A DNA stretch of 64,000 bases from a virus (Duplodnaviria; Heunggongvirae; Uroviricota; Caudoviricetes). The notes beneath the pieces are model-generated. The model worked only from the letters and a program-made list of their open reading frames with translations. It did no database searches and was not told the DNA's origin. The stretch lies in the IMG/VR virus record IMGVR_UViG_2737471993_000002. One strand, 5' to 3'. This document shows positions 2 to 10,041 of this stretch, one piece after another. The number at the start of each line of letters is the position of its first letter. The stretch's first letter is position 1. A program made the translations under genes and the position numbers.

Positions 2-3000
2 TTTGATTTCGTTGAAACGCCTAAATCCGTCAATATCCAGTTAAAAAAAACACATTATGTAACGGTTTCAATCGATAACGATGAAGCTGATCGGGTTCGT
101 GTCATCATGAAGTTTCCTTCTTTGCGAAGCATAGATAAAAAAACTGGTGACACGAACGGTACAACCGTTGAGTACAAGTTCCAGATAGCAAATGGCGACT
201 CAACATTTGTAGATGTGGTCGCGGAAGGTGAAAAAAGCGTTGGCATTAAGCTAACAGCAAAGAAGACCGGCGTTTATTACCGTAGCTACGAGCTGAAGCT
301 GCCTAAGCCTGGACGCGCATACAAGGTTCGTGTAGTCCGTATTACCGATGATAACAGTAGCCAGTATCTCTATAACGATACATGGGTGGATTCAATCGGG
401 GAAATTGTCGATACACCGATGAACTATCCAAACTCTGTTTTGGTTGGATTGAAGGTAAACTCTGAGCAATTCGGCAGCACCATGCCATCTCGCTCTTATC
501 TGGTGCGTGGCCTAAAAATTCGAGTACCTTCAAACTATAACGAGTCCAGTAACACTTACGCTGGGGTATGGGATGGCACTTTTAAGCTGTTGTCTTCTTC
601 GAACCCCGCGTGGATTCTCTTTGATTTGCTGACCAATGCTCGATATGGCCTTGGTCAGTATGTGTCGGAATCTATGATTGACCTTGGCCAGTTGTACCAG
701 ATTGGTCGATATTGTGACGAAGAGGTCGATGATGGCTTTGGTGGCAAAGAGAAACGCTTTGCAATCAATACGCAGATCACCAGTCGACAGGACGCATACC
801 GACTAATTCAGGATATTGCTGGAGCATTCCGCGGCATGGTGTTTTGGGCTGGTGGGATGGTTAACATCATGCAGGATAGCCCATCAGATCCGGTAATGAT
901 GTTTACCAACTCTAACGTCAAAGATGGATTGTTTACCTATAAAGGTTCTGCGCGTAAAGATCGCCCATCCGTTGCGCTCGTAACCTACAACAACAAGGAG
1001 GACGGTTATAAGCAAAACATCGAGTACGTTGAAGATCAGGACGCAATGCGCCGTTATGGTGAGCGTAAGACAGAAGTCGTAGCATTTGGCTGTACAAGCC
1101 GAGGGCAGGCTCACCGAGTTGGTTTATGGCTTTTATATACCGCCAGAATGGAGTCGGATGTAATTACATTTACTGCCGGCTTAGACGCGTCATTTCTGAT
1201 GCCTGGTGAAACCGTTCTGATTCAGAACAAATATCGCGCAGGCAAACGTAACTCAGGTCGAATTGTGGCGTTTACCAAAAACAGCGTCACACTCGATGCG
1301 CCTGTGTCGTTAGCCAAAGGCGGCTGCTTTATTCGAATACTGAATCAGGAAGGCAAAATCGTTGAACGCGATGTTCTTGAAACTGGCGAAAATATAACAA
1401 AAGTTACGTTTTCAAAAGCCCTGTCTTCGGCTGAAACGCCTGTTTTGAACGGCGTCTGGACTATTACAGAACCAGACCTCGAACCTATGCGCGTTCGCAT
1501 CGTTAACATCGCGCAGGGGGAAACGCCGGGTAGCTTTGACATCACCGCTGTTGAGAACAATCCGTCTAAATATGAGGCGATCGACAATGGTGCAACGCTT
1601 ATCCCGCAAAATACGACGGTATTGGACCCGACTTACTCCAAGCCGTCTAATTTGCAAATCACCGAAGGGACTTATCTCTCAAGCCCTGGCAACCTGTCAG
1701 TAAAACTGACTGCAACATGGGAAGGGAAATCTCCAGAGTATTGGATCAGTTGGCGACGTTCTGATGAAAACAATGTATCGAACTGGCAATCGGCGCGTGT
1801 AACCGAAGAGCAATACGAAATCGTTAATGTTGCGGAGAATGGACGCTACGACTTCCAGCTGTATGCGGTTTCATTCAACGGTAAAAAAACAGAGATTATC
1901 AGTACCGTTTATCAGGTGCTGGGCACAATGACACCGCCAGATGCCCCAACGTCATTAACGGCCGTTGGAGACTATCGTAATGTGATACTGAATTGGGTTA
2001 ATCCAGATTCGGTAGACCTTGATCACATTAATGTTTACGCGTCCCAGACCAATAATCTGGATACGGCGAAACTGATCGCAGAGTCTGCAAGCACCACCTT
2101 TACACATGCTGGTCTTGGGGATAGCGAAACGTGGTATTACTGGGTTCGAGCATCGAACAAGCGAGGTATGTTAAGTCCTCCGAACTCAAACTTGGGTACA
2201 GAGGCGACAACTCGCGATGTACTGTCGTTCCTGACTGGCAAAATTACATCTTCCGAGCTTGGTCAGGCTCTGCTTGAGGACATCAACAGCAAAGCCTCTC
2301 AAGAAGCCGTTGACGAGTTAAATGAGCATATCAACCAGAGCGTCGAATCTTTGGAGGGGGCGGTAAACGACGTTAAGGAAGATATAGCTGAATTAGATAA
2401 GCAGTTCAGCGATAACCTCGCGGATTTTGAAATAAAATTCAACGAGCGTAGCGATGCTTTGGAGAACGCACAAACCGAGCTTAAAGGTGAGGTTTCGGCA
2501 ACGATCGACAAGGTCAATGAAGCGTTTGAAAAAATTGATGCTACTGATGCTGCAATTGTTGAAATCGAAAATACCGTATCTGAACACGATAAAGCTCTCG
2601 CTAATACAGTCGAGGCAATAAAGGCTGCAAGAGATGAAGCGGCGGCTCTTATTGCTAAGGAAAGCGAGGCTCGTGTTGAAGGCGATGCTGCAAACGCTAA
2701 ACAACTGGAAGTGTTGCAGTCAACGGTAGAGGAAAGCTCCGCTGCCGTTGAAGAAATGAAAAAGACGGTTGCAGAGGTCGATCGTGCAAGTGCAGAACTG
2801 ACTACGAACATTGAGGCGTTAGCCAAAACAAATATTGACCTGGCTCTTCGTCAAGATGAAGACCAGCACAAGCAGATGGTCAATAACGCGAAGATCGCAA
2901 CAACACAGAAAACCTTTGCTGATGATATGTCTGCAATGGCTACGAAGGTTGAAGAAATTCGCGTAGAAATTGGCGAAGACATTAAGGCCAGTATTCTGGA

Positions 3001-4435
3001 AGAGTCCACCGCGCGTGCCGATGGCGATGAAGCGTTAGCAAAGCGTGTCACTCAGCTGCAATCTAAGTTTGAAGGAGATATCAGCGCGGCGATTAGTACA
3101 GAACAGGAGGCTCGTACATCTGCCGATGAAGCTTTGACGAAACAAATAACTCAGCTTGAGTCGAAAGTAAGCAACGATATTGTCGCAGCCATTAAGGAAG
3201 AGCAAGAAGCCCGAGCAACGGAAGATTCGGCTCTGGCAAGCCAGATCACCCAACTTCAGGCAAAAGTTGATGATGATATTTCTGCTGCAATACGCAGTGA
3301 GCAGGAGGCTCGTGCGAGCGGAGACTCTGCGTTAGCTAAACAAATAAACCAGCTTCAAGCAAAGGTTGACGGTGATATATCCGCCGCCATCACTCAGGAG
3401 CAGGAGGCCAGAGCAAGTGCTGACGAGGCGCTCTCACGAGAAATTAACAGCCTGCGGGCGCAGACCGGAACTGACATTGCCGCAGCCGTTGCTGTAGAGA
3501 CAAAGGCAAGGACTGATGCCGATAGTGCATTGTCTACCCAGATTACGTCTCTTACAGCAAAAGCTAATGATCTCGAGGCGTCTCTTGCCAGAGAAACAAC
3601 GGCTCGTGCTGATGGTGATACCGCTTTAACAAAAGAGGTTTCAAGTTTAAAAGCACAGACAGCGAAAGATATTAGTGCGGCCGTTGCAGTTGAAACGCAG
3701 GCTCGAACTGATGCTGACTCGGCGTTGTCGTCTCAGATCACCAAGCTGACCTCTCAATACAAAGAGGATATTAAAGCGGCTGTAGCAACCGAAACGAAAA
3801 CGCGTACAGAGCAAGATGCTGCATTGGCGACTCAAATCACAAACTTAGAGTCTCAAACGGCAGCCAACATTTCCGCGGCGGTAACAACTGAAACGACAGC
3901 GAGAACGCAGGCAGATAATGCTCTGAGTGGGCGAATCGATACTCTGAAAGCAGAGGTGGATGGAAATACCGCGACAATTCAACAGCAGGCAACAGCTATT
4001 GCTGATACCAACAAAAAAGTGTCAACCGCGTGGACGTTGAAAATGGAAACTTCAACGAGCGGAGGGCAGAAGTATGTTGCTGGTATTGCGCTTGGTATCG
4101 ACACCACTGGCCTTTCTCAGTTTTTGGTGCAGGCTGACAGGTTTGGTTTGGTCAACTCTGTTAACGGGAAGATCACCACGCCATTTGTTATCGAAAACAG
4201 TATCGCCTATATGAATGGTGCGTATATCAAGGATGGCACAATCACCAATGCAAAAGTAGGCGATCTGCAATCTACCAATTTTGTTAGCGGTAGATCTGGA
4301 TGGCGGTTCGGCAAAAATGGAACGCTTGAGATCAACGGTAATAGCGGGGGTAATGGGCGACTGGTCATAAATGGTCAGCGGATTGACGTTTATGACGATA
4401 ACAACGTCCTACGAGTAAGAATTGGCCTTCTGTAA
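2..4435 (+). CDS. Host-specificity / central tail tip protein (lambda gpJ-like), 5'-partial at window edge
   Basis: Reading frame is open from nt 2 with no upstream stop (first Met at 107), so the gene starts outside the window. N-terminal region resembles J-type tail tip proteins; central part carries ~30-aa tandem coiled-coil repeats (..ISAAI..EQEAR..AD.AL..QITQL..) over nt ~3060-3960. Confidence 0.75.
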   Translation, partial: FDFVETPKSVNIQLKKTHYVTVSIDNDEADRVRVIMKFPSLRSIDKKTGDTNGTTVEYKFQIANGDSTFVDVVAEGEKSVGIKLTAKKTGVYYRSYELKLPKPGRAYKVRVVRITDDNSSQYLYNDTWVDSIGEIVDTPMNYPNSVLVGLKVNSEQFGSTMPSRSYLVRGLKIRVPSNYNESSNTYAGVWDGTFKLLSSSNPAWILFDLLTNARYGLGQYVSESMIDLGQLYQIGRYCDEEVDDGFGGKEKRFAINTQITSRQDAYRLIQDIAGAFRGMVFWAGGMVNIMQDSPSDPVMMFTNSNVKDGLFTYKGSARKDRPSVALVTYNNKEDGYKQNIEYVEDQDAMRRYGERKTEVVAFGCTSRGQAHRVGLWLLYTARMESDVITFTAGLDASFLMPGETVLIQNKYRAGKRNSGRIVAFTKNSVTLDAPVSLAKGGCFIRILNQEGKIVERDVLETGENITKVTFSKALSSAETPVLNGVWTITEPDLEPMRVRIVNIAQGETPGSFDITAVENNPSKYEAIDNGATLIPQNTTVLDPTYSKPSNLQITEGTYLSSPGNLSVKLTATWEGKSPEYWISWRRSDENNVSNWQSARVTEEQYEIVNVAENGRYDFQLYAVSFNGKKTEIISTVYQVLGTMTPPDAPTSLTAVGDYRNVILNWVNPDSVDLDHINVYASQTNNLDTAKLIAESASTTFTHAGLGDSETWYYWVRASNKRGMLSPPNSNLGTEATTRDVLSFLTGKITSSELGQALLEDINSKASQEAVDELNEHINQSVESLEGAVNDVKEDIAELDKQFSDNLADFEIKFNERSDALENAQTELKGEVSATIDKVNEAFEKIDATDAAIVEIENTVSEHDKALANTVEAIKAARDEAAALIAKESEARVEGDAANAKQLEVLQSTVEESSAAVEEMKKTVAEVDRASAELTTNIEALAKTNIDLALRQDEDQHKQMVNNAKIATTQKTFADDMSAMATKVEEIRVEIGEDIKASILEESTARADGDEALAKRVTQLQSKFEGDISAAISTEQEARTSADEALTKQITQLESKVSNDIVAAIKEEQEARATEDSALASQITQLQAKVDDDISAAIRSEQEARASGDSALAKQINQLQAKVDGDISAAITQEQEARASADEALSREINSLRAQTGTDIAAAVAVETKARTDADSALSTQITSLTAKANDLEASLARETTARADGDTALTKEVSSLKAQTAKDISAAVAVETQARTDADSALSSQITKLTSQYKEDIKAAVATETKTRTEQDAALATQITNLESQTAANISAAVTTETTARTQADNALSGRIDTLKAEVDGNTATIQQQATAIADTNKKVSTAWTLKMETSTSGGQKYVAGIALGIDTTGLSQFLVQADRFGLVNSVNGKITTPFVIENSIAYMNGAYIKDGTITNAKVGDLQSTNFVSGRSGWRFGKNGTLEINGNSGGNGRLVINGQRIDVYDDNNVLRVRIGLL

Positions 4436-4527: not shown

Positions 4528-7500
4528 ATGTGGTACAGGGAAGGTACTATCACATTTACACAGGGCAGCAATACTCTGGTTGGGGCAGGGACAGCCTGGA
4601 ACGTAACAGCTAATGGTGTGTTGCCGGGGATGATCGTCATTGGCCCCGACAATAAGCTGTATGAGATCAAGCGCGTAACCAGTGATACGAACATTGTTCT
4701 CTCAGAACCTTATACCGGCGAAACTCAGTCTGAAGTTCCGTGCCGAATCATTACGACCTATGAAGGCGACTTAACACAGTTTAGCGCGCGCTTTACAGCA
4801 CTAATGTCGCGTATGTCGGCTGATTCCAAGTCCATGCGCAGTTGGTTGACTGCTCTGGATGAGGTGACAATCGAGCGTGAAGACGGTACAGAAGTGACCG
4901 TTAAGCCGCTAATGCAGATCGTCAACGAGCACAACGAAAACGTTGAGTGGTATAAAAATAACACTGACGCGATTGATGCTGCTGGCGACAAAGCTCGTGA
5001 GGCGGCGGCCAGTGCTGCCGCAGCAGCAGAAAGCGCCAATACCGCTGGAGAAAAAGCCTCTCAAGCGTCTCAAAGTGCATCCGCTGCAGAGTCCTCAAAA
5101 AGCGCGGCGGCCACCAGTGCCGGTGCCGCGAAAACGTCTGAAACGAATGCTGCAGCGTCACAAAAATCTGCAGCCACTTCTGCATCCACCGCGACCACGA
5201 AGGCGTCAGAAGCTGCCACCTCAGCCCGGGATGCGGCGGCCTCAAAAGAGGCAGCGAAATCATCAGAAACGAGCGCAGCCTCGAGCGCCAGTAATGCCGC
5301 TTCCTCGGCAACGGCGGCAGGAAATTCCGCGAAGGCGGCAAAAACGTCCGAGACGAACGCCAGGTCTTCTGAAACGGCAGCGGGACAGAGCGCCTCGGCT
5401 GCGGCAGGCTCAAAAACAGCGGCTGCGTCGTCTGCCAGTGCCGCGTCAACAAGTGCCGGGCAGGCCTCAGCCAGTGCCACCGCCGCCGGAAAATCGGCAG
5501 AAAGTGCCGCATCGTCTGCTTCAACAGCCACAACGAAGGCTGGCGAAGCCACTGAACAGGCCAGCGCAGCAGCGAGGTCTGCTTCCGCAGCGAAGACATC
5601 CGAAACGAACGCGAAAGCGTCGGAAACCCGTGCAGAATCCTCAAAAACGGCAGCCGCATCGTCCGCCAGTTCGGCAGCGTCATCGGCATCATCTGCGTCT
5701 GCTTCAAAAGATGAGGCGACCAGACAGGCGTCAGCAGCGAAGGGCAGCGCCACGACGGCATCCACGAAAGCAACAGAGGCGGCAGGCAGTGCGACGGCAG
5801 CATCTCAGAGCAAAACTGCTGCTGAATCCGCTGCGACCCGTGCGGAAGCTGCTGCTGATCGTGCTGAAGAGATTGCCGGTGCAGTTGCGATGGAAGACGC
5901 AAGCCTTACAACTAAAGGTGTTGTGAAACTTAGCAGTGCTGTCGACAGCACCAGTGAATCGCTGGCCGCAACGCCAAAAGCAGTTAAAGTAGTCAATGAC
6001 AATGCGAACAGCAGGGTGCCATCTAACCGAAAAATTAACGGGAAAGCACTGACTGCGGATATCACATTAACGCCGAAAGATATTGGTACTTTAAATTCAA
6101 TAACGATGTCTTTCTCTGGCGGGGCCGGGTGGTTCAAACTGGCTACTGTTACAATGCCACAAGCGAGTTCCATCGTTTACATCGCATTGATTGGTGGCGC
6201 TGGTTACAACGTCGGCTCCCCACATCAGGCAGGCATTTCAGAACTGGTTCTACGAGCAGGCAATGGAAACCCCAAAGGGATTACAGGTGCTTTGTGGAAG
6301 CGTACAGCTGTCGGATTAACGAATTTCGCCTGGATCAACACATCCGGCGATACATATGATATTTACGTTGAGATTGGCAATTATGCGACTCGTGTAAATA
6401 TCCATTGGGATTGTACTGCAAATGCGACAGTTTCTATTTATACATCGCCAACATATTCAGCGAGTAAGCCTTCCAGCGTTACCGATGGTGTTGTTTATAC
6501 GATGTATAGCACACATCAGAAACCGACGCCGTTAGATATTGGAGCACTGCCAACAACCGGAGGAACAGTTTCAGGTCAGTTGTCTGTTACTGGTGGGATC
6601 ACCGGAACATTAAATGGTAATGCAAGTACAGCAACGAAATTGCAGACGGCAAGATCTATCGGTGGAGTTGGTTTCGACGGTTCTGCAAATATCAACCTTC
6701 CAGGTGTAAATACTACGGGTAATCAGAACACCACTGGTAATGCTGCAACTGCTACAAAACTTCAGACGGCAAGAACTATCGGCGGCGTGAGCTTTGATGG
6801 TACTGCGAATATTAATTTGCCAGGTGTTAATACGGCTGGTAATCAGAATACAACGGGCAACGCGGCTACTGCTACGAAGTTGCAGACTGCGCGTACTATC
6901 AATGGGGTGTCGTTTGACGGCTCGGCAAATATTTCCTTGTCGCCAGCAAATATAGGTTGCCCGGCATCTCCTACTGGTTGGTTAACTACAGGAAGTAATG
7001 GCGGAGCAATAACAACAGCACAGTTAGTGACGTTATTGCAAAATAATGGAGCATTTAACACAAAGTCATGGATTGCTCGATGTGCGTGGGCCTATGCCAA
7101 TAGTGCAACCATACCAAATAGTGAAACTGGTTGTGGCGTTATTCCATTGGCAGGAGCTGTTATAGAGGTATTTAATAACGGTAGTAGCTCAAACAATTAT
7201 ACGATCCGTATAACAACGGCCACAACGACGAGTGTCTCTGGTGCTCTCACTAATGCGGAGTTTATCTATGTATTTAATGGCACATATTATTCTCCGGGAT
7301 GGCGAAGAGTATATAACACGAAAAACAAACCAACAGCCTCTGATGTCGGTGCATTACCTCTTACCGGTGGTACATTATCTGGAGGTTTGACATCTTCTGG
7401 CGAGATCATTTCAAAATATGCAAATGGTTTCCGCATTGCTTACGGTAGCTTTGGGTTCTTTATCCGTAATGATGGATCGAACACATATTTCATGCTAACA

Positions 7501-8556
7501 GCATCAGGAGACACATTAGGTTCATGGAACGGTTTGCGACCAATTACAATTAATAATACCAGCGGTGCTGTATCAATTGGTAATGGACTAAATGTGACTG
7601 GTGGCGTAAATGGTAGTTTGAACGGTAATGCTTCAACAGCTACGAAGTTGCAAACAGCGAGAAACATCAATGGTGTTAAGTTTGATGGCTCAGGCGATAT
7701 CAACATTAATACATTGGTATCTCGTGGCCGAGTTACGGCGTTAAGCGGCTCTACTCAAGGCACTGCTGGCATTCAAATGTACGAGGCGTACAACAATAGC
7801 TACCCGACCACGTATGGCAACGTATTGCACATGAAAGGTGCGAGTGCTGCTGGTGAGGGCGAGTTGCTTATTGGCTGGAGTGGTACGAGCGGTGCACATG
7901 CGCCAGTTTTCATTCGCTCACGAAGAGATACCACAGATGCGGCATGGTCAGCGTGGGCGCAGGTATATACTGCTAAGGATTCAATCCCTGGTGTGAATAC
8001 AACCGGTAATCAGAATACTACTGGTAATGCCGCAACAGCCACAAAATTGCAGACAGCAAGGAAAATTGCTGGTGTGGCGTTTGATGGCTCTGCCGATATT
8101 ACTTTGACTGCGGCTAACCTTAATGCCTATACGAAAACAGAGGTAACAAACCTTCTAAGTTCCTATGTGAAGAGCAGTGCTCTTCCAAGTATGACTGTGC
8201 GAACTTCCTCTGTTTCAGGTGGGGATATGGGCATGAGTTTGTCCACATTCATTAGCCACCTAAAATCAAATGGGGCGTTTAGCAAAAGTTATTGGATTGG
8301 CTTTGGCGATGCTATGGGATTCAATGCTGGCAGTATCAACAATATAACGGGATTTGGTGCTGTAGAATTAGCAGAATCTATAATCGAAGTTTTTAATCTA
8401 CCTAACGGTGATTATACAATTCGTTTAACAACGTCACATAAAGCTGACTACGGTGGAGTTACAAACGCAATCCTCGTTTATCACTACCGTAGTAATAGAA
8501 GTCCGTCAGGTCAATGGCTGAAATTTGCAGGTACTGTTGGGGCAACAAGTAACTGA
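4528..8556 (+). CDS. Side tail fibre protein (Stf-like) with Ala/Ser-rich region and C-terminal fibre repeats
   Basis: ATG at 4528 preceded by AAGGAG. Long Ala/Ser/Thr low-complexity segment with KTSETNA-type motifs typical of lambdoid side tail fibres; five copies of GNASTATKLQTAR.I.GV.FDG.ANI..PGVNTTGNQNTTGNAATATKLQTAR. Confidence 0.7.
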   Translation: MWYREGTITFTQGSNTLVGAGTAWNVTANGVLPGMIVIGPDNKLYEIKRVTSDTNIVLSEPYTGETQSEVPCRIITTYEGDLTQFSARFTALMSRMSADSKSMRSWLTALDEVTIEREDGTEVTVKPLMQIVNEHNENVEWYKNNTDAIDAAGDKAREAAASAAAAAESANTAGEKASQASQSASAAESSKSAAATSAGAAKTSETNAAASQKSAATSASTATTKASEAATSARDAAASKEAAKSSETSAASSASNAASSATAAGNSAKAAKTSETNARSSETAAGQSASAAAGSKTAAASSASAASTSAGQASASATAAGKSAESAASSASTATTKAGEATEQASAAARSASAAKTSETNAKASETRAESSKTAAASSASSAASSASSASASKDEATRQASAAKGSATTASTKATEAAGSATAASQSKTAAESAATRAEAAADRAEEIAGAVAMEDASLTTKGVVKLSSAVDSTSESLAATPKAVKVVNDNANSRVPSNRKINGKALTADITLTPKDIGTLNSITMSFSGGAGWFKLATVTMPQASSIVYIALIGGAGYNVGSPHQAGISELVLRAGNGNPKGITGALWKRTAVGLTNFAWINTSGDTYDIYVEIGNYATRVNIHWDCTANATVSIYTSPTYSASKPSSVTDGVVYTMYSTHQKPTPLDIGALPTTGGTVSGQLSVTGGITGTLNGNASTATKLQTARSIGGVGFDGSANINLPGVNTTGNQNTTGNAATATKLQTARTIGGVSFDGTANINLPGVNTAGNQNTTGNAATATKLQTARTINGVSFDGSANISLSPANIGCPASPTGWLTTGSNGGAITTAQLVTLLQNNGAFNTKSWIARCAWAYANSATIPNSETGCGVIPLAGAVIEVFNNGSSSNNYTIRITTATTTSVSGALTNAEFIYVFNGTYYSPGWRRVYNTKNKPTASDVGALPLTGGTLSGGLTSSGEIISKYANGFRIAYGSFGFFIRNDGSNTYFMLTASGDTLGSWNGLRPITINNTSGAVSIGNGLNVTGGVNGSLNGNASTATKLQTARNINGVKFDGSGDININTLVSRGRVTALSGSTQGTAGIQMYEAYNNSYPTTYGNVLHMKGASAAGEGELLIGWSGTSGAHAPVFIRSRRDTTDAAWSAWAQVYTAKDSIPGVNTTGNQNTTGNAATATKLQTARKIAGVAFDGSADITLTAANLNAYTKTEVTNLLSSYVKSSALPSMTVRTSSVSGGDMGMSLSTFISHLKSNGAFSKSYWIGFGDAMGFNAGSINNITGFGAVELAESIIEVFNLPNGDYTIRLTTSHKADYGGVTNAILVYHYRSNRSPSGQWLKFAGTVGATSN

Positions 8557-8758
8557 TTTAGACATTATTTATATGGCTGTGAGGTTTAAAATGCGATCTC
8601 ACAGCCGCAATCATAGGGATATATTAGTGAGTTACTAGATACGAATTTGAACAGCCGTTAAACGGTATATGCATAGGTAGGTAAGTATATACCTATAATT
8701 GAAAGGAGAAGTGTGATATAAATCCGCCATCCCGATTTGACTTTTCATGGAGGAAAAC

Positions 8759-9082
8759 ATGTCGAACGAGATGGCGGGCGTTACAACAGAGCAAGTTGAG
8801 CGTATTGCCGCGATCGTTGCTCGGGAGGTTGTTGGCAAATTAGGTAAAGAGCTACGTGAAGAAATTGGCCAGGAGGTCAATGATCAGCTGAAAACCTACT
8901 TTGGTGATATGACCCCGGCGCAACATAGTATTCAACACTCCAATCTGGACAAACTCCTTAACCGGTTAGATTCCATCTCAAGTGGGTTCTTTGGCGGCAT
9001 TGTTTCTAAAATAACGTCGTTCATTATTACCGCACTGCTTTTGGGGTTAGCCGCGTATGGCGTAAAAAGTGGACTGCAATAA
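8759..9082 (+). CDS. Small tail-anchored membrane protein (possible holin/antiholin)
   Basis: Internal ATG at 8759 with GGAGGA 4 nt upstream (track start 8747 also possible). Single C-terminal hydrophobic helix ITSFIITALLLGLAAYGV; sits directly upstream of the putative lysis genes. Confidence 0.25.
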   Translation: MSNEMAGVTTEQVERIAAIVAREVVGKLGKELREEIGQEVNDQLKTYFGDMTPAQHSIQHSNLDKLLNRLDSISSGFFGGIVSKITSFIITALLLGLAAYGVKSGLQ

Positions 9083-9095
9083 CAGGAGATCAAGG

Positions 9096-9788
9096 ATGAA
9101 GACTCCGAGAGGCATTCGTAATAATAACCCCGGTAATCTTGATAAAGGATCACCGTGGCAAGGTCTGGTTGCGAATCCAGACGAACCGCGCTTTTGCACG
9201 TTTAAAGACCCTGTTTGGGGGATTCGTGCGCTGGCGGTGACTCTAATTACCTACCACGACAAACGTCGCGCAAAAGACGGCTCAAGTATCGATACCATTC
9301 GTGAAGTTATTGAACGTTGGGCACCGCCGAATGAAAACAACACTGACGCCTACATTAATGAGGTGTCTAAAGCCGTTGGTGTAACCGCAGACATGATCAT
9401 CGATCTGCATGATTACGACATCCTTCGACCTTTGGTTGAGGCAATCATTCGCCACGAGAATGGTCGAGGTCCACTAAAAACGCTGAACACCTGGTATGCG
9501 GCAGAAGTTATTGAGGAAGGTCTGCGTCGAGCTGGCGTCGTTAAGCCGGTGAAAACCGTGAAGGCTGTTCCTGTAACTAAAGAAACCGCTGGCGCAACTG
9601 TTACAGCAGGTATTGGTCTGGCGCAGCTGGCCGATGTTATGCCGCAGGTTTCCGCTGCTATGGATAAAGCACAAGGTCATATCTCTAGCGGGGATACAGT
9701 ACGCATCATCTTCGGTATTGCCACTATTGTTGTGGCTGGATTTATCGCCTGGTCGCAGGTAAGAAGACACCAGAAAGGGATGGTCTAA
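9096..9788 (+). CDS. Putative cell-wall hydrolase / endolysin-like protein (uncertain)
   Basis: ATG at 9096 with AGGAG upstream (track start 9069 is GTG). N-terminal GIRNNNPGNL motif recalled from muramidase-like phage proteins; position between membrane protein and spanin-like genes. C-terminal hydrophobic segment is atypical for an endolysin. Confidence 0.3.
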   Translation: MKTPRGIRNNNPGNLDKGSPWQGLVANPDEPRFCTFKDPVWGIRALAVTLITYHDKRRAKDGSSIDTIREVIERWAPPNENNTDAYINEVSKAVGVTADMIIDLHDYDILRPLVEAIIRHENGRGPLKTLNTWYAAEVIEEGLRRAGVVKPVKTVKAVPVTKETAGATVTAGIGLAQLADVMPQVSAAMDKAQGHISSGDTVRIIFGIATIVVAGFIAWSQVRRHQKGMV

Positions 9789-9789
9789 T

Positions 9790-10041
9790 ATGCTAGGCAG
9801 CCTGATGACAAAGCTAAAAGTTGCTTTGATTACGCTGGCTGCCGTTCTTTTCGTTCTTGTCGGCGCTTACACGATGGGCGGAAATGCGGCGCGACGAGCA
9901 ATGGAAGAGAAGGCAAAACAGGAAGACAGAAAACGACTTCAAAGCACAGTGGATGTCAAAAATGAAACGGTTAATGAAGTGCGGCAAAAAGATGCCTCTG
10001 GTGTTCATCGCGAGCTGCTTGATAAATGGGTGCGTGATTAA
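9790..10041 (+). CDS. i-spanin (Rz-like) candidate
   Basis: N-terminal transmembrane helix (KVALITLAAVLFVLVGAY) followed by charged coiled-coil periplasmic region; start overlaps preceding stop (TAATATG). Confidence 0.35.
   Translation: MLGSLMTKLKVALITLAAVLFVLVGAYTMGGNAARRAMEEKAKQEDRKRLQSTVDVKNETVNEVRQKDASGVHRELLDKWVRD

Follow-up and report, generated by a model that had tools for sequence, protein, structure and literature searches.

What do short internal repeats do in a tail-fiber gene, and do they drive its variation? The question is raised by a 64,000-nt stretch of Caudoviricetes DNA (IMG/VR record IMGVR_UViG_2737471993_000002), hereafter the window, in which one open reading frame (ORF) on the plus strand, at positions 4528 to 8556, encodes a tail fiber with five copies of a repeat. 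A sequence-only reading of this DNA had described the copies as near-identical and had proposed them as substrates for recombination and host-range variation. The analysis reported here indicates that the repeats are probably ancient, ubiquitous shaft units acting as standard joints for the exchangeable modules of a trimeric fiber.

Five copies alike as protein and diverged as DNA

Exactly five copies of the motif (T/N)GNAxTATKLQTARxIxGVxFDGxxxI were found in the fiber protein, three of them in a 40-aa tandem array and two dispersed. A profile built from 44 diverse units was used to scan the six-frame translation of the whole window, and a regular-expression scan was also performed. The profile matched five stretches and no others, all in frame +0 of the fiber ORF (nt 6616 to 6708, 6730 to 6828, 6850 to 6945, 7624 to 7713, and 8017 to 8112), with scores of 52 to 66 bits; the top score among 500 shuffles of the fiber protein was 5.5 bits. 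Tandem Repeats Finder rendered a period of 120 nt (2.2 to 2.5 copies, 73 to 75% matches), and a repeat finder gave the same period. On all these counts, the repeats are real. The unit consists of a 28-residue core and a 12-residue linker, and the linker, PGVNT(T/A)GNQNTTG, occurs three times (Table 1). The arrangement of three tandem and two dispersed copies held as first described, except that the complete 40-aa unit with its linker, present in the array and ahead of copy 5, is absent ahead of copy 4.

The description of the copies as near-identical was borne out for the protein and not for the DNA. Pairwise amino acid identity between copies was 71 to 89%, and 18 columns were invariant in a 34-column alignment of the five window units and three units from phage CMS-2020a. 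At the DNA level, the cores were 67 to 75% identical (32 to 54% at third codon positions), and the longest common exact run was 8 to 14 nt. Conserved residues were encoded by the same codon in 89 of 221 cases (0.40), compared with 0.36 expected from independent draws on the codon usage of the gene (P = 0.13). No DNA relatedness between copies was therefore detectable beyond what the protein requires, and synonymous sites are saturated. Since codon identity is at the chance level, the copies are old and have not been homogenized by gene conversion, and they are poor substrates for ordinary homologous recombination.

Two other origins were considered and rejected: recent duplication or concerted evolution of the copies, given the saturation of synonymous sites, and a diversity-generating retroelement target (a variable repeat/template repeat pair), given that mismatches between units involve all four bases of either copy and are not adenine specific.

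Unit losses, module junctions and module order

Repeat number was compared among the 120 closest protein clusters, most of which show the 3+1+1 arrangement. In 17 of the 120 (the 1301-, 1302-, and 1345-aa classes), the first array is short by exactly 40 residues, i.e., it holds two units instead of three. P0188 carries one additional unit at the R4 position (two instead of one), and the seven-copy P0174 has three units instead of one at the R5 position. For its part, the 1529-aa class lacks aa 1060 to 1152; as a result, a tandem pair is made up of R4, L3, and the core that follows. Repeat number thus varies among relatives, as the sequence-only reading had expected.

The two two-unit classes correspond to two separate in-register 120-nt deletions (from three units to two), with microhomology junctions of 11 to 12 nt. 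In the P0176 class, L1 switches to L2 inside the common 11-mer GGTAATCAGAA (window positions 6718 and 6838), in agreement with 142 of 144 informative sites; the copy in L1 forms one side of the junction at which the 1301-aa relatives carry the deletion. In the P0146 class, R1 switches to R2 at the common 12-mer CAGACGGCAAGA (positions 6643 and 6763), and 129 of 144 sites fit. R2 and R3 share only 67 to 70% DNA identity, taken over the core or the 120-nt unit; therefore, the three-unit state is the older one and the changes are losses. Minimal pairing segments of 23 to 27 bp for Red-beta and 31 to 34 bp for RecA have been reported (PMC3945230), and both the junction homologies and the longest run between copies fall below them. 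Judged from the junctions, units appear to have been lost in this lineage by in-register joining at microhomologies and not by classical homologous recombination.

The same 11-mer is present in all three linkers (6718, 6838, and 8005), and an in-frame loss of R3-B-C-R4-D (1167 nt) would result if copies two and three were joined. No such variant was found among the 120 relatives.

That the copy-number differences are short-read assembly artifacts of a repetitive region is hardly credible. One case fits it, that of P0174, whose seven copies lie on a 4.2-kb contig ending in the gene. The two-unit gene (3906 nt), however, is found in records of the curated plasmid collection PLSDB (AP026520.1, CP088392.1, CP088482.1, and NZ_CP099896.1), and P0146 is found on 13 contigs. 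Moreover, with about 30% DNA divergence between units, collapse by assemblers is not to be expected, and the two deletion junctions are clean and distinct.

The mechanism implied by the first description, in which near-identical repeats frequently recombine by homologous unequal crossing-over inside the gene and host range shifts with the resulting repeat number, is quite improbable. Differences of exactly one 40-aa unit do exist between close relatives, and the hybrid units show in-register joining. However, with codon identity at the chance level and synonymous sites saturated, cores only 67 to 75% identical, and a longest run of 14 nt, below the RecA and Red-beta minima, the copies do not offer the DNA that such a mechanism needs; the deletion junctions themselves measure 11 to 12 nt. 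There was no sign of gene conversion between copies, a two-unit array occurs in just 17 of the 120 related clusters, and unit number changes the length of the shaft and not the tip.

The ends of DNA blocks shared with relatives were located by strict extension of high-identity blocks; looser runs were also made. The homology blocks of relatives were found to end within repeats, as the recombination claim had anticipated. Two of them end in R2, at +42 nt of the 84-nt core for CMS-2020a and at +55 nt for the lambda-like phage phi458. In R4, the blocks end at +42 to +43 nt for P0176, P0174, and Escherichia phage Cyrano, a 108-kb SSU5-like phage-plasmid whose "tail fiber protein" gene (between J and the holin gene) is 96.7% identical to the fiber gene. 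The blocks of P0173 and P0188 end at +37 nt of R4, and the R4 ends of the five relatives represent at least two distinct events. Identity to the Cyrano-type relatives restarts at −3 to 0 nt of the start of L3. The sequence downstream differs between CMS-2020a and phi458, as it does between the Cyrano and P0173 types; the blocks therefore record four separate events, none more than about 18 nt from the codon of the final R of GNAxTATKLQTAR.

Similar positions were obtained from the proteins. Divergent cassettes start 4 aa after R3 (where module B is replaced, in the 1362-aa relatives), at position 17 or 25 of R4 (where module D is replaced or deleted), at position 25 of R5 (where the tip is replaced), and also 4 aa before L3. 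In five of six cassette types, protein divergence begins in R3, R4, R5, or L3 or at most 4 aa from them. Six of seven cassette left edges fall in the 30% of the sequence that lies within 4 aa of a repeat, for which a rough binomial estimate gives a P value of about 0.004.

As to what places the junctions, one alternative takes the motif as a pure structural spacer: illegitimate recombination would break the gene at any point, and folding and survival would be limited to chimeras with their joins at unit boundaries. It differs from the reading as standard joints solely in what places the junction, and we consider it rather unlikely. The DNA similarity within the gene, no greater than amino acid constraint predicts, the short junction microhomologies, and a module grammar (see below) such as foldability selection would give are all in accordance with it. 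It accounts less well for the clustering of four independent swaps, which are at most about 18 nt apart, where the most conserved stretch ends. In addition, the DNA of units is 86 to 87% identical between unrelated phages (160 nt in HdSG1, 116 nt in phi456), which could support the relaxed recombination by phage annealing proteins known for diverged fiber genes (PMC3945230). We favor a mixture in which short homology from the first half of the core and selection for foldability both contribute.

Site-specific inversion was rejected as the cause of the junctions, since no invertase crossover site (AAACCNNGGTTT-type core) was found in the fiber gene; the window has two one-mismatch matches outside the gene, the number expected by chance. 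No invertase is annotated near the homologous gene of Cyrano.

Downstream of the fiber gene of phi458, which shares the fiber up to R2, lie an inverted tail-fiber-assembly-like ORF, IS1 genes, and a fragment of a Pin-type DNA invertase (L003, 6546 to 8636). They resemble what would remain of an invertible tip system.

Modules A, B, C, and D recur in P1-like fibers in another order, with the motif flanking each of them. The order in P1-like pE92-3 is two units, module D, three units, B, C, one unit, another domain, and a lambda-type tip. In P1-like p20-20P1, module A follows an array, while in the window it precedes the array, and CMS-2020a contains module A twice, one copy after a repeat array.

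The second half of the core goes with the element downstream. In all the proteins compared, NINGV(K/R)FDGSGD was always followed by module D, TINGVSFDGSANI by module B, TINGV(S/L)FDGSKNI by module A, KIAGVAFDGSADI by the tip connector, and xIGGV..FDG..NI by the linker. This coupling was the same whether the unit was entered from a linker or from a domain. The rule extends beyond E. coli: among 150 diverse representatives, IGG units led to a linker in 197 cases and to another element in 55, and units with another residue in place of the first G led to a linker in 1 of 303 (Fisher p = 1e-97); fragments from a word-indexed search showed the same IGG/linker pattern (p = 2e-27). The window fits this grammar, R1 and R2 being of the IGG type and R3, R4, and R5 of the ING, ING, and IAG types, respectively.

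The joint reading would combine these observations as follows. Each unit would fold only in the trimer and hold the three chains in alignment from one globular module to the next. GNAxTATKLQTAR, the first half of the core, is the same everywhere, and the second half (xIxGVxFDGxxxI..) goes with the next element. A core cut in the middle and rejoined would still encode a complete unit, so that mid-core junctions would be tolerated and the repeats would act as standard joints. The module of exchange would then consist of the second half of a core, a domain, a linker, and the first half of the next core, and such modules would be exchanged, reordered, deleted, and multiplied among SSU5-like, lambda-like, and P1-like phages. 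Exchange at one precise point of a conserved, probably self-trimerizing unit would explain the compatibility of fibers from unrelated phages, and the middle of the core offers a concrete junction for the construction of chimeric fibers.

A broader version is possible and is put forward tentatively: the 40-residue unit might be a universal fiber plug, from gut to ocean, with a fixed grammar in which the first half is invariant, the second half is set by the next element (IGG leading to a unit, and ING, IAG, or ISG to a domain), and the recombination point lies between the halves. If true, it would provide a ready rule for where to cut and join fibers in host-range engineering, and, if also undescribed, it would define a large uncurated repeat family with no solved structure.

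Spread and structure of the unit

The consensus of the motif is (T/L)(T/S)GNAATAT(K/A)L(A/Q/E)TAR(T/N)I(G/N)GVSF(D/N)G(S/T)ANI(N/D)LPGV. Among 1.84 billion cluster representatives, 19,690 proteins were matched at E ≤ 1e-3 by a 33-position profile of the 44 diverse units; of these, 7,579 reached ≤ 1e-10 and 1,138 reached ≤ 1e-30, and a single protein held as many as 17 matched stretches. A rescan limited to the best 150 representatives found 4 to 15 copies in each, with a modal spacing of 40 aa (261 of 880 spacings) and the other copies parted by inserts of about 70 to 300 residues. The window, with its short tandem array and dispersed copies, therefore shows the usual architecture. The sources of motif proteins include E. 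coli and the TARA and GOS ocean metagenomes; the word-indexed search with the array retrieved 654 proteins, including TARA Oceans fragments with 70 to 79% identical arrays.

Database coverage was poor. The 118-aa array matched 26 whole-protein families of PHROGs, mostly tail fibers plus one head-decoration family, and no repeat model for the motif was found there. No model in Pfam-A or NCBIfam covers GNAxTATKLxTARxIxGVxFDGxxNI, the only matches being below threshold and unrelated, and a protein with 10 motif units had no Pfam match whatever. The nearest catalogued element, PF03406 (Phage_fiber_2, a "phage tail fibre repeat" of about 40 residues in lambda-, P1-, and Mu-type fibers; gathering score, 22 bits), is similar in size and setting and is present in relatives of this protein. 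However, it models another element, KGxVQLSSA..AATPKAVK (residues 87 to 127 of P0057), and matched neither the whole fiber nor the 118-aa array even at E ≤ 10. No description of the motif was found in a literature search by motif string and keywords, whose reach did not extend to the key older papers (1992 to 1994), and priority is not claimed. From its sequence distribution, the motif appears to be a very widespread, uncatalogued tail-fiber connector of about 40 residues: some 20,000 clusters at 50% identity would belong to a repeat family that domain databases and the PDB leave uncovered.

A structural lead was the decoration protein Dec of phage L (6e3c). Its residues 98 to 133 (NAETADKLSTARTI...SFDGSANVTI) match the repeat profile with E values of 2.6e-4 (A1) and 1.2e-3 (A2) in a PDB-sized database (single-sequence match, E = 0.11). 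The segment trimerizes Dec: residues 99 to 134 form a C-terminal spike that makes nearly all the trimer contacts and is unfolded in the monomer, and an AlphaFold2 trimer model shows three antiparallel strands per chain, with circular dichroism supporting antiparallel beta structure (PMC6449081, PMC11398494). Dec differs in having a single copy, with a 7-residue insertion, at the C terminus of a capsid protein and not in a fiber, and its spike is known from model and circular dichroism only. The other match was tail fiber gp47 of Pectobacterium phage PhiM1 (8vbx; E = 1.3e-4), whose structure paper contains no description of the motif-bearing part. In an AlphaFold2 monomer of the array (73 sequences; predicted local distance difference test score [pLDDT], 71.7), each unit had one confident hairpin, RxI-(GG)-VxF, the rest being extended, and confidence peaked once per unit. 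Because of the likeness to Dec and the conserved L/I/V/F pattern, we infer that each unit may be a short, trimer-dependent, intertwined beta segment that keeps the three chains in register.

Carbohydrate binding by the C-terminal beta structure of Dec has been suggested, as speculation, by the authors of its study (PMC6449081), and the repeats could by analogy be ligand-binding elements touching the host surface, such as carbohydrate-binding beta structures. This is very improbable: the motif is 70 to 80% conserved between E. coli phage-plasmids and ocean metagenome proteins, whereas the receptor-binding parts of fibers are the most variable ones, and the units lie in mid-shaft, the variable parts being the modules between them.

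Several points weigh against the reading of the repeats as trimeric joints. Junction events are few and not fully independent, and selection for chimeras that can fold might by itself explain why they lie at repeats. In the commonest alternative tip, divergence sets in 24 aa beyond R5 and not inside it, some small divergent patches lie away from repeats, and when three small internal patches are counted, the binomial estimate yields a P value of only about 0.05. The gain of units in P0174 may be an assembly artifact. As for the fold, PDB sequence and profile searches returned no solved structure of the canonical motif; the matches to Dec and gp47 were the only ones and are weak, with a 7-residue insertion after ...TARTI. 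A Foldseek search of the PDB with the array model gave no fold match (best E = 9.7), and an AlphaFold2 monomer of aa 686 to 1342 (27-sequence alignment; pLDDT, 42.7) was unusable.

Fiber mosaicism, tips and known systems

The fiber gene lies downstream of a J-like central-fiber gene and upstream of holin and endolysin genes, and its features are collected in Table 1.

Table 1. Features of the tail-fiber gene (window coordinates; core sequences are given in two parts)
Feature	Position	Strand	Residues (aa)	Sequence or description
Tail-fiber gene	4528..8556	+	1342 in total	ORF; homologue of the Cyrano gene
Module A	6076..6576	+	517-683	Globular segment ahead of the array
Repeat core R1	6613..6696	+	696-723	NGNASTATKLQTAR, SIGGVGFDGSANIN; array-internal IGG type
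Linker L1	6700..6738	+	from 725	PGVNTTGNQNTTG; holds GGTAATCAGAA at 6718-6728
Repeat core R2	6733..6816	+	736-763	TGNAATATKLQTAR, TIGGVSFDGTANIN; IGG type
Linker L2	6820..6858	+	from 765	PGVNTAGNQNTTG; second GGTAATCAGAA at 6838-6848
Repeat core R3	6853..6936	+	776-803	TGNAATATKLQTAR, TINGVSFDGSANIS; array-terminal ING type, then module B
Module B	6937..7332	+		Resembles a domain of Mu tail fiber S/S' (PDB 8ju3, domain E = 1.4e-27)
Module C	7333..7620	+		Gp34_trimer-type domain, Pfam PF21446 (T4 gp34, Mu S)
Repeat core R4	7621..7704	+	1032-1059	NGNASTATKLQTAR, NINGVKFDGSGDIN; ING type
Module D	7705..7986	+		Cassette swapped or deleted in many relatives
Linker L3	7987..8025	+	from 1154	PGVNTTGNQNTTG; third GGTAATCAGAA at 8005
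Repeat core R5	8020..8103	+	1165-1192	TGNAATATKLQTAR, KIAGVAFDGSADIT; IAG type, then tip
C-terminal tip module	8104..8553	+		Holds a paralogue of module B

By sequence comparison, the gene is a mosaic: an SSU5-type N terminus and a lambda Stf-like shaft are followed by modules A to D and a tip, with the repeats as connections. Nucleotides 1 to about 515 of the coding sequence match SSU5, Enterobacter and Citrobacter plasmids, and Yersinia pestis plasmids; nucleotides 525 to 1478 encode an Ala/Ser-rich shaft with 87 to 95% identity to the stf genes of lambdoid phages; and nucleotides from about 2058 to 3578 match S genes of P1-like plasmids at 80 to 90%. Genes 90 to 98% identical to the fiber gene are carried by non-mobilizable E. 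coli plasmids of about 110 kb. Its position downstream of J and its Stf-homologous shaft are those of an Stf-type fiber. An adjacent tfa chaperone gene, as such fibers have, is absent: positions 8557 to 9800 of the window contain the holin (8747 to 9082) and endolysin (9069 to 9788) genes. P1-like relatives do carry a tfa gene.

PF21446 scored 102 bits (cutoff, 27) over aa 907 to 1008, and the same module matched 5yvq, 4uxe, and 5nxf in the PDB at E ≤ 1e-21; the family match belongs to module C, between repeats, and not to the repeat unit. Module B and part of the tip (6937 to 7332 and 8104 to 8553) are paralogues, with 36% identity over 91 aa (E = 6e-13), so the fiber has a tip-like domain, the Mu S/S'-like module B, also in mid-shaft.

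The Ala/Ser-rich shaft (window positions from about 4980 to 5900, aa from about 150 to 460) is itself internally repetitive, with direct-repeat families D3 to D7, and it also gives rise to long spurious ORFs, both in the other frames and on the reverse strand. Deletions of 105 aa and 12 aa in relatives (aa 224 to 328, 182 to 286, and 302 to 313) make it a second length-variable site of the gene. The J-like protein (107 to 4435, plus strand) has a long C-terminal run of coiled-coil-like repeats of about 28 residues (..DISAAI..EQEARA.AD.AL..QI..LQ.KV..) ahead of its last domain. Its homologues beside related fiber genes measure 1575 or 1463 aa (the Cyrano J gene, 4728 nt), so its length seems variable, and the gene in the window is probably truncated by the window start.

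Tail fibers decide which bacteria a phage or phage-plasmid enters, and clinical E. coli often carry SSU5-like and P1-like phage-plasmids. No Peptidase_S74 domain was found in the window fiber; close relatives with other tips contain this intramolecular chaperone domain, and in the two S74-tip relatives inspected, a T-even gp38-like adhesin gene lies directly downstream. The alternative distal tips presumably change receptor specificity, and tip exchange is likely a route to host-range change. The proposal that the repeats are a substrate for host-range variation thus held in its outcomes, i.e., varying repeat number and junctions; what varies, however, is the set of modules that the repeats join, including alternative C-terminal tips, and any change of host range would presumably come from these and not from repeat number itself.

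In SSU5-like P0173 (L008, 4900 to 5190) and P0188 (L010, 5019 to 5313), with 1529- and 1570-aa fibers, the gene next to the fiber matches Gp38_N and GP38, a T-even-type adhesin cassette within a siphovirus-like phage-plasmid.

Mosaic fiber genes of lambda, Mu, P1, P2, p15B, and T4 with short common segments were reportedly described by Haggard-Ljungquist et al. in 1992, Sandmeier et al. in 1992, and Sandmeier in 1994, and Sandmeier is said to have noted invertase crossover-like sites at segment boundaries. Conserved-motif swapping in the T-even gp37/gp38 adhesin locus was reportedly described by Tetart et al. in 1998 (see also PMC3157838). The strong mosaicism of fibers and their sparse coverage in domain databases are likewise known (PMC10684548). 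The present finding is thus a well-resolved, precise example of the long-known evolution of mosaic fibers through conserved motifs and not a new type of system.

As in the mosaics of lambda, Mu, P1, P2, p15B, and T4, the fibers of unrelated enteric phages are chimeric, the SSU5-type fiber sharing blocks with lambdoid stf and P1-like S genes; in contrast to them, no gix/cix-like core is present here, and the boundaries map to the midpoint of a protein repeat. In T-even gp37/gp38, similarly, short conserved motifs flank variable segments and act as swap points for specificity determinants. Those motifs, however, are His boxes or glycine rich, while here the swap point is a 40-aa structural repeat that also occurs in tandem arrays. 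The fiber has no His box (GxHxH), nor any HxH in its 1342 aa; the lambda-type tip of a P1-like relative does have GxHxH motifs. Finally, LtfA of T5-like phages carries tandem 19-aa repeats, whose number rose by one when a gene fusion occurred (PMC4728585). The likeness lies in the changing copy number of shaft repeats in laboratory or natural variants of lateral fibers. The LtfA motif (VDSALADKADIATTYTKME) is unrelated, however, and its copies are similar enough in DNA for ordinary recombination, unlike the five copies of the window.

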